Translations under genes and position numbers: made by a program
Notes under the pieces: model-generated
Told to the model about the DNA's origin: nothing
The model's database searches: none
Seen by the model: the letters and a program-made list of their open reading frames with translations, nothing else
Origin: Planctomycetota bacterium
GTDB lineage: Bacteria > Planctomycetota > UBA1135 > UBA2386
Length of the DNA: 64,000 nt
Direction: 5' to 3'
Assembly: GCA_046290465.1 (NCBI GenBank)
Contig: JBKAGP010000001.1
Location: 5,952,001-6,016,000 of the forward strand
In this document: positions 41,037-46,459 of the stretch, piece by piece
How positions within the stretch are numbered: position 1 is the stretch's first letter
How the letters are laid out: each line of letters opens with the position of its first letter

Positions 41037-42101
41037 ATGGAACGAGAGGAAGTGGCGGGTGCGCTGCGCGGCGCGCGGTCCCGGATCGTCGCCGAGTTGC
41101 TCGAGATCGACGGCTTCGGAGGCCCTCGCGACCAGGTCCGCGCCGGCCTCGAGGCGGTCGTCGACGACCTGGCTACGGCCGTGCAGTTCTCGTCGTCGGG
41201 CCTGACCGATCGGGCCTTGTCGTGGTGGAAGGTGCGCGTGCGCGCCCTCGGTGGCGATCCCCGCCAGGTGGTGCTGCTGCCCGGCTACCTGCTGCCCCTG
41301 GCGGCCCGCTTCGTGCCCGAGCTGGCGCTGCCGACGCTCGAGGCGCTGCTCGCCCACGCCGACCAGGTGGTCGCGCACGCGCCCGAACGGGCGCCGGTGG
41401 GGGCGGACCTGCACCCGTCGCTGGTGCCGGGCGGGCTCGGGCGCGAACTGGCCGACGCGATGTGCGGGGGCGATCGCACCGCGGCCGCGGCGATCCCGGC
41501 GCGGCACGGCGCCGAGCCCAGCGCCTGCCTGCGGGACGGCCTCGAGCCGGCGCTGCGCGAGTACGGGGCGCGCTGGCAGAACGGCGAACTCGATCCGGCC
41601 GTCGAGCACGTCGCCTCACGGATCGCGAGCGAGCTGGTCGCGCACGCCGCCCGGCAGGTGCCCGAACCGCCGGGCGACGCGCCGCTGGTGGCGCTGGTGC
41701 GCGCGGCCGGCGACGAGCACTCGCTGGGCCAGGCCTGCCTGCGCGTGCACCTCGCCGCGCACGGCCTGCGTTCGCGCGTGCTCCCGGGCGACGGCCGGCT
41801 GCAGGACGTGCTCGCGATGGTCGCGGCCGTCGGCGCCTCGGCCGTGGCGATCTCGTGCACGCTGACGCGCCAGCTCGAAGCCGCGCGCGACCTGGTCGCG
41901 GCGATCCGGCGATCCGAGCTGGCCGCGATGCCGGTGCTGCTCGGCGGCGGCATGTTCGTCGACGTGCCGCAGCTTGCCTCGCAACTGGGCGCCGACGCGA
42001 CCGCCGTGGACGGCGAGCAGGCCGCCGCCGAACTCGCCCGGCTGCTCGGTGTCGCGGTTCCGATGCACGATGGGGCACAGCGTCCCGACCGGAGCGGTTG
42101 A
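41037..42101 (+). CDS. cobalamin-binding protein (four-helix bundle + Rossmann B12 domain) with uncharacterised N-terminal helical domain
   Basis: W-x9-EH (WQNGELDPAVEH), D-x-H-x2-G (GDEHSLG), ISCT, LLGGG. Confidence 0.85.
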   Translation: MEREEVAGALRGARSRIVAELLEIDGFGGPRDQVRAGLEAVVDDLATAVQFSSSGLTDRALSWWKVRVRALGGDPRQVVLLPGYLLPLAARFVPELALPTLEALLAHADQVVAHAPERAPVGADLHPSLVPGGLGRELADAMCGGDRTAAAAIPARHGAEPSACLRDGLEPALREYGARWQNGELDPAVEHVASRIASELVAHAARQVPEPPGDAPLVALVRAAGDEHSLGQACLRVHLAAHGLRSRVLPGDGRLQDVLAMVAAVGASAVAISCTLTRQLEAARDLVAAIRRSELAAMPVLLGGGMFVDVPQLASQLGADATAVDGEQAAAELARLLGVAVPMHDGAQRPDRSG

Positions 42102-42135
42102 GCGGCGTTGCTTGCAGGCGGCGGTGACGGCCTCG

Positions 42136-44259
42136 TCACCGGCAGTAGACGAGGATCTCGCCGCCGCCAGTGGGCACCTCGAACGCCCCGGAACCCGCCT
42201 CGCGCTCGGTCGCCAGCTCCCACTCGAAGTCGCCCGGGTACAGGTCGAGGCGCCACTTAGAACAGTCTCCTCCCTTGGTCTCGACCACGATGGTCTTGCC
42301 TGCCTGACGCAGCGACAGCGTCGCTTCTCCATATGGCTGCCGCAGCCCTTCGATGCGCAGGGTCGTCTCCGTTGCGCTTCGTTGCGGCATCGACAGCGCG
42401 CCGCTGTGTCCTGCAGCCACCCGCATGCGATGGACGTGAGGTGCGACGCCTCTGCCGAACCACGCGAACTCGTACTCGCCGACGGACAGCTCGCCGAGAT
42501 CCCAATGCGCACGCTCCCGGTCGCGGGCCAGCATGATCCAGGTGTCCTGCGAAGCCTGCCGCAGACCGAGCAGGCAGCGGCTGCCTGCGATGCTGTCGCC
42601 GTCGACGACCATCCGGCACGACACCGTCTGCGGCAGTTCCCAGTAATAGGAGCTGACGCCCAACGGCTGCACCGTGGTCTCGGCGCGATACGGCAGGTGC
42701 CAGTCCGAGACGCTGATCTCGCAGGTGTAGGTGCCCGGCGGAATCGACGTGATGTCGCAGACCCCGTCGACGACCGAGCCGGTGAACACGCGGTTGCTGC
42801 CGTCGACCTCGGTAAGCCGGACCGGCCACGCCCCTTCGCAGGCGCCGCCCCCGCTCGAACGAACGTCGAGGTGCAGCGCCCCACTGGGCAGCTCTGCTGC
42901 CGAGACGACGATGCGCGCATACGTGCGCGGATGTGCCTGCACGGTCTTCAGGGTGCGTTCGAAGCCAGCGTGGGTGCGCACGACGACACGCAGTTCCAGC
43001 GCCCGTGCCGGCACGTTGCCGAACCGGAACGTGCCCAGTGGCCCGATGACGGCCGGTGCACGGGCGCCGGCGCCGTGCAGCAGGACGAACGTGGTGCCGA
43101 TCTCCGCAGGCACGCCCTGGACTTCGCCGGTGAGGGAATCGGTCGCTTCGATCTCCCATGTGTGTTGCACGACCTTGCCAGGGATCTCGGTTTCGGCCCA
43201 CGGCCCCCCGTCCGCCAGCAGAACCCTGACGGGGTCCTTGGCCACGTCGCGCAGGCGCGCCCGGCCCGCCGCGACGAGGGCGCTGCGCTCGACCGTCCCG
43301 TGCCAGGTCACCTTGCCCTGCGCAACCGGGCCGTCGCCCTGGACCGACAGCGAGATGTCGATACTGCGGGCCTGCTGGAGCACGATCCTGGCACCGTGCA
43401 TGTCGCGGCTGTCGCCGGCGACCATGCCGTCCCGGTCGGCGACCCAACGCTGCCATCCATCGGGAACGCGCAGCAGAGCCTCGCCGTGTTCGTCGGTCAG
43501 GCCACGGTCGCGCACCCTGCCCTGGTCGTCGATCGCGTCGACGACCGCGTCCGCAACGGGGTGGCCGGTCGCCGTCTCGACGTGGACCGATACCGCCTTG
43601 TGCAGAGGTGCCAAGCCGGCCACGTTCGTGCCGTTGCTCCAGTCGCTGACCTTGCCCGCCTCGCGATAGACCGCCCGGACCAACGCCGCCGGGTCGACGG
43701 TCACGGCAGCGAGCTGTGGGTTCTGCAGCGACTCGGCGACGCGGAACACCCAGTCGGCCGGGCTGACCGAGCGGGTGAGCAGTTCGCATCCTTCGGTGCC
43801 CGCATGCTCGATCGAGACGGCGTTGTCCGGGAGGGGGCGCAACCGGACCGAGGTCTTGCGACTGCCGATCACCAGCGGTGGACGACGATCGCTGAACAGC
43901 ACGGCTGCCTCGCCGAACGCCGGATCCCAGGCGATCACGGCGTTCTCGGCGTTGGCCGGGATCACGATGTGTCGGCGAACGCGGAAGTCCGCAGTTGCGA
44001 TGCCGCACGCCTCGTCGAAGCCTTGTTCGCTTCGCGTGACCCGATACTCGATGAGGTCCTCGTCGTTGCGGCGTGTGATCGGCGTCGAGCCGGTTTCCGG
44101 CGTCGGCGCCGTGCCGTCGCCGCTCGCTGGACCAGCAGGCTGCTGGGGGGTGTCCGGGGTCGGACCCGTGGTGGGGGCTCCGGAACTCCAGTACCAGAGG
44201 CCTGCCACGACCGCCGCGAGGCAGGCGACGGCAAGCACGAGCAGCCTTGCGTTCTGCAT
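42136..44259 (-). CDS. membrane-anchored beta-rich protein with carboxypeptidase-regulatory-like repeats
   Basis: N-terminal TM, Pro/Thr linker, repeats GHPVADAVV, GLTDEHG, GTFRFGNVP, SIPPGTYTCEI, LYPGDF. ATG sits 2 nt after the upstream stop. Confidence 0.65.
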   Translation of the reverse strand: MQNARLLVLAVACLAAVVAGLWYWSSGAPTTGPTPDTPQQPAGPASGDGTAPTPETGSTPITRRNDEDLIEYRVTRSEQGFDEACGIATADFRVRRHIVIPANAENAVIAWDPAFGEAAVLFSDRRPPLVIGSRKTSVRLRPLPDNAVSIEHAGTEGCELLTRSVSPADWVFRVAESLQNPQLAAVTVDPAALVRAVYREAGKVSDWSNGTNVAGLAPLHKAVSVHVETATGHPVADAVVDAIDDQGRVRDRGLTDEHGEALLRVPDGWQRWVADRDGMVAGDSRDMHGARIVLQQARSIDISLSVQGDGPVAQGKVTWHGTVERSALVAAGRARLRDVAKDPVRVLLADGGPWAETEIPGKVVQHTWEIEATDSLTGEVQGVPAEIGTTFVLLHGAGARAPAVIGPLGTFRFGNVPARALELRVVVRTHAGFERTLKTVQAHPRTYARIVVSAAELPSGALHLDVRSSGGGACEGAWPVRLTEVDGSNRVFTGSVVDGVCDITSIPPGTYTCEISVSDWHLPYRAETTVQPLGVSSYYWELPQTVSCRMVVDGDSIAGSRCLLGLRQASQDTWIMLARDRERAHWDLGELSVGEYEFAWFGRGVAPHVHRMRVAAGHSGALSMPQRSATETTLRIEGLRQPYGEATLSLRQAGKTIVVETKGGDCSKWRLDLYPGDFEWELATEREAGSGAFEVPTGGGEILVYCR

Positions 44260-44261
44260 GT

Positions 44262-45260
44262 TCAGGTTCGGTTCCTCGCCATCATGCCGACCAGCAGGCT
44301 GACGCCGACCAGCAGACTCAGGCACAGCCAGCGGCGCCAGGTCGTCGGCACGCGGGCTTCGCGCCAGACTCCTTCGGACTCGAGGACGGCCAGAAAGCGG
44401 CTCGAGCCGGTCGTGTCGACGTATTCCATCGGTGCAGCCCCCTGCCGTTCGTAATCCAGGCGATAGGTATAGTCATCGATCGCGACCATGCGAGGCCACG
44501 GTGGAGCCTCCGTCAGTCGGGACACGTCGACGAGATGCATCTCCCGCTCGAGACCGGGCTCGGCCGGGACGTGCACGCGTACGTCGGACCAGCATGGAGC
44601 ATGTGCATCCCCGGTGTCGATGCGATTGGTGTAGGCATAGGTGACGCCCGCCTGCTCGGGCACATGGGGGTTGTGCTCGATCGTCAGGCTCGCTGGCGCC
44701 AACTTCACGGCGCAGCCCTGCGAGGTGCGCACCATGGTGCCCTCGGCGGTGCCCACGGCCTCGCCCAGTACGACCGCGAGGTGGCCTCCTCCCCAGAGGA
44801 AGTGCCCGAGCTGCAGCAGCGCCCCGGCCAGAGCTGGATCGCGGTCGTGGGAGGACTGGTCTCGTCGCACACTAGCGAGTGGACGACAGCGCAGCACTTC
44901 GCCGTCCGCGTCCCAGTAGATGCCCTCCTGCACGCCACAGTCATGCCAGCCGACGGAAGGCTGCGTCAGGTCCCCGGTCCAGTTCGCGGGGTATTGGTCG
45001 GTCCACAGGGTCCATGCATCCGGCCCGGCCAACCAGAGCCGCATGTGCAGTACGCGGCCATGTGCGTTGGCATCGACGAGGGTGGTGCTCCATTCGGCAT
45101 AGGTGGCGCCGAGCTTGCGGTAGCCATCGCCGCTCCATTCCTGGGCGGAGCACGTGACGACTAGCAACCCTGGCAGAAGGCCCTGCAGGAGGCCCCGCCG
45201 AAGGCGCTGCAGAAGGCCCTGCCGCAGGTGTCGTCCGAGGTCATGAACGTGCATCGCCAC
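44262..45260 (-). CDS. hypothetical exported protein with C-terminal membrane anchor
   Basis: Signal-like N-terminus; C-terminal RRWLCLSLLVGVSLLVGMMARNRT; overlaps the MauE-like gene. Confidence 0.6.
   Translation of the reverse strand: MAMHVHDLGRHLRQGLLQRLRRGLLQGLLPGLLVVTCSAQEWSGDGYRKLGATYAEWSTTLVDANAHGRVLHMRLWLAGPDAWTLWTDQYPANWTGDLTQPSVGWHDCGVQEGIYWDADGEVLRCRPLASVRRDQSSHDRDPALAGALLQLGHFLWGGGHLAVVLGEAVGTAEGTMVRTSQGCAVKLAPASLTIEHNPHVPEQAGVTYAYTNRIDTGDAHAPCWSDVRVHVPAEPGLEREMHLVDVSRLTEAPPWPRMVAIDDYTYRLDYERQGAAPMEYVDTTGSSRFLAVLESEGVWREARVPTTWRRWLCLSLLVGVSLLVGMMARNRT
45173..45228. repeat. 4-5 x 12-bp tandem repeat within the signal-peptide coding region
   Basis: gcagaaggccct / gcaggaggcccc / gccgaaggcgct / gcagaaggccct. 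Confidence 0.7.
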
Positions 45261-45690
45261 TCCCTCGAACGCGTCGCAGGGCTGCGGGCGCGAGCAGCGC
45301 GACCAGCAGCAGATTGCGCCAGAGCAGCAGCGAGATGCCGTCCAACACCCGCTCGCGGCGCAGCAGCTTGCCGAAGCAGTTGCACATCGGCGCTTCGTTG
45401 ACGATCGACTCGATGACGAGCATCGCCGCGAACAGCGCCAGCAACCCGATGGCCGAGCGGGCCGTCGCGCGGCGTCGACCCGGCAGCATCACGTAGGCCA
45501 GCAGCAGGCCCCATTCCACGCTGGGCAGGAGCATCGCGATCGGCAGCTCCATCGTGTCGGGGATCGTCTGCCAGCCGGCAAGCGAATCGAGGAAGTCGTC
45601 AGCCGCATAGGCCTTCGCCAGTCCGGCGCAGCCCAGGACCGCCATGGCAAGCAGAGGGCATGCCTCGCGTAGCAGGGTCGACCACTTCAT
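45241..45690 (-). CDS. MauE/DoxX family redox-associated membrane protein
   Basis: AGLAK, LPSVEW, CNCFG (CxCFG), WRNLLL; four TM helices; GGAG RBS. Confidence 0.85.
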   Translation of the reverse strand: MKWSTLLREACPLLAMAVLGCAGLAKAYAADDFLDSLAGWQTIPDTMELPIAMLLPSVEWGLLLAYVMLPGRRRATARSAIGLLALFAAMLVIESIVNEAPMCNCFGKLLRRERVLDGISLLLWRNLLLVALLAPAALRRVRGSGDARS

Positions 45691-45757
45691 GCAGGTCTCC
45701 GTCGAGATGGGCGGGGTGGTGGTCGGGCCGCGGGTCTGCGGCCCGATCGGCCAGCGG

Positions 45758-46240
45758 CTAGAAGCCGCCTTCCGGCTCTACCGGGTCCTCCTCGTCGGAG
45801 CCGCCGTAGTTCTCGCACTCGACGCCGAATAGCTCGTGACCCTTGCAGGTGTAGTTCGCCTGCGAGATCGGGTCGCACTGGCCGTGGACCGTGGTGCTGC
45901 ACGTGTAGCGCCACTGCGTGCACTTGCCGTCGATGCCGGAGTTCCTCCAGTCGCTCCAGCAGCCAGCTGCCCCGGTCGGGCAGTCCATCTGCCGCCAGAC
46001 GAGGTCGTTCTTGAGGGTGATGTTGGTCGCCGGATTGGCGGCCGGGCAGTACCACGGCGAGCCGAGGTTGCTGTTCACGCAGTAGGTCTTCTTGCCGGGA
46101 GTGAACCCGGAGTTCGCGGTCCCGTCACCCAAGGCGCAGCACCTTGCCTGGTAGCGCGTGTAGCACTCCGTTGCGTCGGACGCGGCCATCAACAGCATCA
46201 GCGGTACGGCCAAGAGCACGTACTTCAGCTTGCTAAGCAT
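45758..46240 (-). CDS. secreted cysteine-rich small protein (160 aa, 12 Cys, acidic tail)
   Basis: AGGAGA RBS; signal peptide MLSKLKYVLLAVPLMLLMAASDA; GC3-biased codons. Confidence 0.85.
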   Translation of the reverse strand: MLSKLKYVLLAVPLMLLMAASDATECYTRYQARCCALGDGTANSGFTPGKKTYCVNSNLGSPWYCPAANPATNITLKNDLVWRQMDCPTGAAGCWSDWRNSGIDGKCTQWRYTCSTTVHGQCDPISQANYTCKGHELFGVECENYGGSDEEDPVEPEGGF

Positions 46241-46307
46241 CGGATCTCCTTCTTCGCAGCCGAACTTGCAGAGCCTGGGAGTCAGGCGCCATCGTCGGCG
46301 ACTCCAA

Positions 46308-46336
46308 GTTCTACGTATTACACCTGGCGATGTCAG
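46308..46336 (-). promoter_or_regulatory. possible sigma70-type promoter of the Cys-rich cassette
   Basis: Minus strand CTGACA-N17-TAGAAC, ~70 nt upstream of the ATG in an AT-richer spacer. Confidence 0.3.
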
Positions 46337-46459
46337 GGGGGTAGGTACGAACATTCCGTCGGATCGCGCTCACGGGCCACGGCCAGCCATTGCCAGCTCG
46401 CCCCAAGAGGTGAGAAGTCAGCCCCTTGGGTGCAGGCGGTCAGGCGCCGATCCGGGCTC

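Follow-up and report, generated by a model that had tools for sequence, protein, structure and literature searches.

What does a gene for the membrane protein MauE do when it resides in a small mobile cassette together with genes for a cysteine-rich exported protein and two membrane-anchored proteins? This question is raised by a stretch of 64,000 nucleotides from a Planctomycetota genome (contig JBKAGP010000001.1, positions 5,952,001 to 6,016,000; referred to here as the window), where four minus-strand genes form one tightly coupled unit. The first gene encodes P0001 (45758..46240; 160 aa), the presumed product of the cassette, which has an N-terminal hydrophobic signal and 12 cysteines. It is followed by MauE (P0002, 45241..45690; 149 aa, PF07291 at E 4e-16, four hydrophobic segments), by an exported protein with a predicted LolA/LolB/TP0789-like fold and a C-terminal membrane anchor (P0003, 44262..45254; 330 aa, signal, transmembrane segment 310-326) and by an N-terminally anchored beta-sandwich protein of the CarboxypepD_reg type (P0004, 42136..44259; 707 aa, transmembrane segment 6-22, PF13620 at E 8e-10), which on the basis of a paralogous pair is a candidate cognate binder of P0001. 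As read from the sequence, genes 1 and 2 are separated by 67 nt, genes 2 and 3 overlap by 14 nt and genes 3 and 4 are 2 nt apart, and both the order and the coupling are those given in a first-pass annotation of the window. The cassette is a real, mobile and undescribed variant of a module composed of MauE and a cysteine-rich substrate, and it offers a strong, testable lead on the partner of that substrate.

The four-gene cassette is an insertion that was acquired horizontally, as had been proposed. It covers about 4.36 kb (42102..46459) and is bounded by a B12-binding gene and a DUF1552 gene, whose convergent stops enclose it, and among 14 congeners compared, two (G008 and G012) display the empty site, where the flanking genes converge with their stops 16-18 nt apart. 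No terminal repeats stand out at the ends of the insertion. Another congener (G011) harbors an orthologue of P0004 that is intact and alone (74% and 70% DNA identity over two contigs); of gene 3 only the last codons remain in front of it, and it lies between genes for an integrase and a recombinase. The B12-binding gene on the left side (41037-42101) is itself absent from the site in G005 and G007, i.e., genes have been gained or lost here on more than one occasion. The GC content at third codon positions of genes 1-4 is 0.92, 0.85, 0.80 and 0.85, respectively, compared to a genome median of 0.94 (4587 genes called by our own script), which corresponds to percentiles 21, 3.6, 1.3 and 3.7. The reported shift toward A/T-ending codons therefore holds for genes 2-4, but hardly for gene 1. 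The overall GC content of the cassette genes is slightly low (0.66-0.71 vs 0.70).

Contigs of two other studies span the cassette at about 98.5% identity; four joints across the region in one run, whose sides measured just 20-22 letters, were excluded from this comparison. One metagenome contig carries MauE and homologues of P0003 and P0004 in the order found in the window (47%, 39% and 34% identity), and homologues of P0002, P0003 and P0001 with identities of 83%, 72% and 57% probably share one contig of 4512 bp; this link (P0009/P0012/P0005), like that between P0023 and P0008 (5103 bp), is drawn from equal contig sizes only. Among 338 other genomes of the class, no other P0003-like match was better than E 9e-4, i.e., this exact cassette type is rare. 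A metagenome scan with P0003 alone found nothing, and a genome scan with the MauE alignment returned one weak, unrelated locus only.

Cassettes of the same general design recur. The genome of the window contains four MauE cassettes, and each of the three others combines an exported protein with 8-14 cysteines and an anchored partner. Five further loci of this genome, one of them broken in both genes, pair a cysteine-rich protein and a partner without MauE. Altogether, at least nine such loci with unrelated cysteine frameworks are found; MauE is missing from five of the nine, while an anchored partner is present at every one. In relatives, an exported gene product with 12-14 cysteines was found at 10 of 28 MauE-like loci, picked from 59 non-self MauE matches, nearly all for reaching the CXC region. 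A profile of the precursors, i.e., of the cysteine-rich proteins, which is blind to MauE, identified 18 new loci, 12 of which have MauE within 6 kb; an anchored partner is present behind the precursor at 17 of these loci, and the remaining one stops at a contig edge. Across the phylum, a same-strand exported cysteine-rich open reading frame accompanies MauE at 21 of 40 loci (two of which look spurious, while two real ones were missed by the filter), compared to 3 of 40 for the opposite strand and 15 of 150 for random stretches of the genome of the window. The 40 loci, to which a fixed filter was applied, come from 52 new MauE matches, where five at contig ends and seven weak ones were excluded. 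Because the MauE profile was made from cassette copies, this sample leans towards cassettes.

These data agree with the suggestion that MauE would recur with exported cysteine-rich proteins. The accompanying suggestion, that MauE is conserved while the precursor is hypervariable, does not hold everywhere: in the commonest cassette type the median identity is 22% for MauE, 24% for the precursor and 17% for the partner. The precursor type seen most often joins two six-cysteine units in tandem; in an alignment of 30 sequences all 12 cysteines are invariant and column identity is 23%. The steadier companion of the cysteine-rich protein is the anchored protein rather than MauE.

The composition of the individual loci varies. 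In cassette D (G000:C1:3408830-3415000, locus L038) the exported protein is an 8-Cys protein with a sorting-signal-like transmembrane tail; the locus also encodes two MauE-thioredoxin fusions along with a beta-sandwich protein and a membrane protein that is exosortase-like and matches no Pfam family. A second type, found at G000:C1:557529-559630, 3927001-3928384, 3985475-3987188 and 4877724-4879233, is composed of exported proteins with 12-15 cysteines and an N-anchored partner of about 275 aa without a Pfam match; one of these loci is located behind a serpin gene. These partners and their precursors align poorly, and a likeness of the partners to lipase foldases was not shown. In a decayed cassette (G000:C1:5595950-5597139, L102) the 2x6-Cys gene is interrupted by a frameshift as well as a stop, and its beta-sandwich neighbour is truncated. 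At L065 and L074, MauE lies immediately upstream of a pilin-like gene, followed in L074 by a 15-Cys exported protein. The loci L073 and L080 combine MauE-thioredoxin fusions with exported proteins that have 13-15 cysteines and with proteins anchored at the C terminus, one of which is weakly LolA_like and one of which adjoins a C39 peptidase; this is the layout of the cassette in the window, in another family. At L043 and L097 the precursor genes are duplicated in tandem and have diverged between the cysteines.

The assignment of P0002 to MauE is clear (59.8 bits, with a curated PF07291 cut-off of 27). Its hydrophobic segments comprise residues 6-22, 49-65, 81-97 and 118-134, and between the third and the fourth lies the CNCFG motif (103-107, C103-N-C105-F-G) that had been noted in the first-pass annotation. 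According to the accessible part of a preprint (10.64898/2026.03.05.709764), two MauE proteins substitute for DsbB in E. coli, which requires the CXC motif, a conserved Lys, Glu and Phe are named, and MauE is a generalist that acts through DsbA. P0002 retains the oxidase residues K26, E59 and F106 in addition to CXC, where the Lys and the Glu are those assigned to helices 1 and 2, and a role as a DsbB-like oxidase is plausible from these residues. In the genome, which is 94% complete, DsbB, VKOR, DSBA and Thioredoxin_4 gave no match, with positive controls. No thioredoxin or MauG gene is found within the cassette, and eight CCP/MauG-family matches are located elsewhere in the genome. As stated earlier for this locus, neither the insertion nor its flanks contain mauB, mauD or mauG; genome-wide searches for mauA and mauB gave no match, though the controls of both also stayed silent. 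A MauE tree (72 rows, quick method), which is to be read for its long branches only, leaves 44 of 69 inner branches open and cannot resolve the cassette MauEs as one clade.

P0001, the putative substrate, has six further family members in 5.8 billion clusters, including one near-identical cluster of its own and one fragment. All 12 cysteines, with a spacing of 7-0-18-10-21-6-12-6-7-9-9, are invariant across six full-length sequences. Outside the cysteines the two halves differ, with 62% identity in residues 24-70 and 36% in residues 87-142, i.e., the N-terminal half is conserved and the C-terminal half variable. The framework is unrelated to that of the precursor family of relatives (hhalign probabilities 0.7 and 2.0), and P0001 lacks the pattern C-x15-C-x3-C-x5-C-x14-CxC that occurs twice in the tandem 2x6-Cys family of these relatives (alignment A6). 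P0001 has no match in Pfam (E up to 1) or NCBIfam and none among PDB sequences (E 10), and no toxin domain was recognised in these searches. The fold cannot be named because an AlphaFold2 model from four rows reached a predicted local distance difference test (pLDDT) value of only 43, gave no structure match with a Z of 5 or more and had no usable match in the Atlas.

The two downstream genes, previously described as unknowns, both have recognisable folds, LolA-like in P0003 and a carboxypeptidase-regulatory beta-sandwich in P0004. The information on the partner comes from cassette B of the same genome, which was modelled because it is the best-aligned pair of precursor and beta-sandwich protein. 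The model has a score of 0.79, compared to 0.02 for the best of three controls; the mark used for such pair models was attained in 116 of 157 solved complexes and in 2 of 215 mismatched pairs, counts that are only roughly valid for the alignments used. Individual runs share at least 77% of the contacts, and the pLDDT of the partner is at least 73. In the model, three hairpins of the precursor contact the partner and two of these pair with strands 286-291 and 499-506; the precursor bridges two partner domains by strand addition. Within the partner, conservation is lowest at the interface (11% vs 14-20%). No solved structure resembles the precursor family of this pair in sequence. The model supports a predicted binding of the cassette B cysteine-rich protein to its beta-sandwich partner, and by analogy P0001 would be captured by P0004. 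The accessible part of PMC8999054 contains nothing on these beta-sandwich ectodomains.

P0003 has no Pfam match. Its model (pLDDT 54) matched six chains with a Z of at least 8, all of them LolA/LolB-like; the best match had a Z of 10.0 and a root-mean-square deviation of 3.8 over 173 aligned residues. Comparison with Atlas structure rows, with template modelling scores of 0.4-0.45, agrees with a LolA-like fold, and the identity to solved LolA-like chains is 5-15%. P0003 is thus predicted to be a LolA-like fold with a C-terminal anchor, where the fold alone shows no carrier function. P0003 and the L080 protein, though both LolA-like and C-anchored, do not align with each other (probability 0.1). 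Compared to its homologues, the start of P0003 is lengthened by 12 residues through four in-frame 12-nt repeats (45173-45228), at which the contigs of one run break.

Taken together, these results suggest how the cassette may work. P0001 would leave via Sec, as its signal indicates, and its 12 cysteines would form six disulfides with P0002 as a DsbB-like, quinone-linked oxidant, either directly or via an unlinked thioredoxin-fold protein; here the chemistry is that of MauE from two other species, and P0001 is the presumed substrate. In the periplasm, folded P0001 would be gripped by tethered P0004 with edge strands added to the P0001 hairpins, as modelled for the paralogous pair, and P0003, with its predicted LolA-like cavity, would be a second tethered helper. 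The core of this scheme, i.e., an oxidised exported protein with a cognate tethered binder, is likely. For the role, we favor a polymorphic antagonistic effector (P0001) that is held and neutralised by P0004 in the producer and its kin, to which we assign a probability of roughly 0.4. The cassettes are mobile and patchy, the precursor hairpins are buried in the modelled complex and the lone partner in G011 resembles an orphan immunity gene. Furthermore, the identities of precursors and partners correlate (Mantel rho 0.38, p 0.004, 17 loci), and because the two diverge together, each binder would fit its own precursor.

Several observations weigh against an effector and its neutraliser, or against the transfer of the model to the window. 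The Mantel correlation is also expected from joint inheritance, and the interface of the cassette B precursor is no more variable than its remainder (15% vs 13%). The modelled complex covers a paralogous pair only, whose precursor shares no homology with P0001. Within the partner family, P0004 is only remotely placed (32.7 bits vs at most 1.0 for shuffled sequences, with a profile that included 6 non-member frames among 42) and falls outside the 51 genome-wide matches of the cleaned partner profile (E 1e-3), 47 of which have no cysteine-rich neighbour. P0001 is acidic (17 D/E vs 12 K/R) and not a cationic peptide. Fast change of the precursor within the species is not seen; P0001 and P0015 display one difference in 160 aa, at odds with the hypervariability that had been anticipated. 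No toxin domain, target or delivery system was seen, and immunity proteins are usually small, while P0004 has 707 aa. Besides a toxin, P0001 may also be a signal or an adhesin.

The core would be the same if the tethered protein were a dedicated chaperone that acts sterically, or else a permanent stalk, with the cysteine-rich protein as its client or tip, e.g., an adhesin or surface protein, with no antagonism involved. N-anchored periplasmic foldases encoded beside their client, such as lipase foldase, provide a precedent, and the bridging of two partner domains in the cassette B model is what a fixed subunit would do. The sorting-signal-like tail in cassette D, beside an exosortase-like gene (assigned by eye, without a Pfam match), and the two phylum loci with pilin-like genes point in the same direction. 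However, all three modelled precursor hairpins face the partner, so little variable surface would be left to display, the inner-membrane anchor places the complex in the periplasm and the orphan partner in G011 is hard to fit with a chaperone. We consider this foldase or display role a serious alternative, somewhat less probable than the favored effector-neutraliser pair.

A further serious, though less probable, alternative is that the cysteine-rich protein is a secreted ligand that signals kinship or cell density, with either the tethered beta-sandwich protein or those paralogues that are fused to extracytoplasmic function (ECF) sigma factors as its receptor. Among the 51 beta-sandwich paralogues, at least 10 carry a fused sigma-70 region 2 and four more follow one, a count for which 24 of the 98 sigma-70 region 2 matches in the whole genome (G000) were entered in a script and the remainder judged by eye. 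In relatives, three of four genes picked by eye upstream of the cassettes encode sigma factors. P0004 itself, however, lacks a cytoplasmic domain and, with only about five residues ahead of the anchor, cannot signal by itself; no sigma gene is found in or beside the cassette of the window.

Even less probable is a loose association, where MauE is the general oxidase of the cell and the genes merely travel together on islands without a dedicated substrate or binder. Such a view would be in line with the description of MauE as a generalist in the accessible part of 10.64898/2026.03.05.709764, with the lack of DsbB and VKOR matches in the genome and with the cysteine-rich loci that do without MauE, and P0003 and P0004, with four and nine cysteines outside the hydrophobic ends, respectively, could be substrates as well. 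Against it stand the enrichment of cysteine-rich neighbours over both controls and the reciprocal test, the fixed gene order in L039 and the modelled cassette B complex. Finally, P0001 shares with the methylamine dehydrogenase small subunit (MauA), or another tryptophan tryptophylquinone enzyme subunit, its 12 cysteines, several tryptophans, a signal and a MauE neighbour, but this identity is very unlikely given the absence of a PF02975 match (E up to 1) or a PDB match, a single invariant tryptophan (W98) in the C-terminal half, the lack of a mauB match (control silent) and the unrelated frameworks that fill the same cassette slot; the reading in the first-pass annotation likewise requires P0001 to differ from a plain MauA.

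As to expression signals, GGAG words resembling Shine-Dalgarno sequences are located 5-6 nt upstream of genes 1-3, which accounts for three of the ribosome-binding sites claimed earlier; gene 4 starts directly behind the gene 3 stop. The candidate promoter noted for the cassette is reduced to a weak sigma-70-like one found by eye on the minus strand (46308..46336, CTGACA-17 nt-TAGAAC, which agrees with the consensus at nine of 12 positions and follows a run of C); a consensus scan found no sites, including none at this position. A homopolymer run at 46336-46342 adjoins the candidate -35 box and has two extra bases in one low-depth contig, a length difference that could reflect promoter tuning or an error. 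A 9-bp GC-rich hairpin on the minus strand, 3' of the P0001 stop (45718..45741; z -2.4, with three of 200 shuffles equally good), may stabilise the mRNA and is local to this cassette; as a general cassette feature it was rejected, as such hairpins follow 6 of 49 precursors and 2 of 49 controls.

How does the cassette compare with known systems? Like polymorphic toxin-immunity cassettes, it is mobile and patchy, and shares with them a rapidly diverging gene pair, tight cognate binding as far as predicted for the paralogous pair, an orphan partner and co-decay; unlike these, it has no toxin domain or delivery system, and instead a large multi-domain anchored partner and a built-in oxidase. With lipase-specific foldases and LolA/RseB-type carriers it has in common an anchored periplasmic partner beside the client and the LolA-like fold of P0003, while folds and clients differ, as do the C-terminal anchor of P0003 and its low identity to solved chains. 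The similarity to mau clusters and MauE oxidases includes the Pfam MauE domain, the four hydrophobic segments, the CXC-FG loop, the Lys and Glu and a 12-Cys exported neighbour, just as mauE adjoins mauA. In contrast to the MauE proteins in the accessible part of 10.64898/2026.03.05.709764, the MauE of the window belongs to a mobile cassette that provides a single candidate substrate and lacks MauD/DsbA as well as mauA/B/G. A mauE gene outside mau clusters, adjoining a precursor with at least eight cysteines as its proposed substrate, was described in 2020 for three Streptomyces cluster families (decRiPPter, PMC7794033, accessible part), which were presented as candidates for peptides that are made by ribosomes and modified after translation (RiPPs). 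The juxtaposition of mauE and a cysteine-rich precursor is the same, but the present cassettes are found in another phylum, have a Sec-exported product of 130-160 aa and encode tethered beta-sandwich and LolA-like partners. Instead of a leader/core precursor, tailoring enzymes and a peptidase or exporter, as in RiPP clusters, the insertion holds an oxidase and two tethered proteins, and the product has a Sec-type signal. Searches of the open-access literature gave no account of Planctomycetota cassettes of this kind, of a tethered binder or of a cognate-binder design. Hence, the MauE chemistry and the location of mauE beside cysteine-rich precursors are already known, and the mobile variant with anchored partners is undescribed.

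A bolder and slightly more tentative proposition than the effector-neutraliser role itself is that two-part recognition cassettes, polymorphic and so far undescribed, form a large class in Planctomycetota. These would combine a disulfide-knotted exported protein of one of several unrelated frameworks and a cognate binder, anchored in the inner membrane, that holds the hairpins of this protein by adding strands to them, often with a private MauE, and would serve in self/non-self recognition, i.e., antagonism with immunity or kin signalling via the ECF-fused ectodomain copies. With these findings MauE, so far viewed as a generalist oxidase, becomes a candidate for a cassette-specific maturase whose substrates can be named. 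They also offer a concrete, testable ligand for a family of tethered beta-sandwich proteins with about fifty members per genome, for which we found no ligands described. Whatever their role, these small proteins, which have no sequence match in Pfam or the PDB, are putative six-disulfide scaffolds of bacterial origin. If the pairs are effector and immunity protein, or signal and receptor, planctomycetes would have a kind of self-recognition that has so far not been reported for them. Should the proposed class exist, the carboxypeptidase-regulatory ectodomains that abound in this lineage would gain their first ligands, and bacterial scaffolds that are rich in disulfides and come with a folding enzyme of their own would be at hand as a large natural library.

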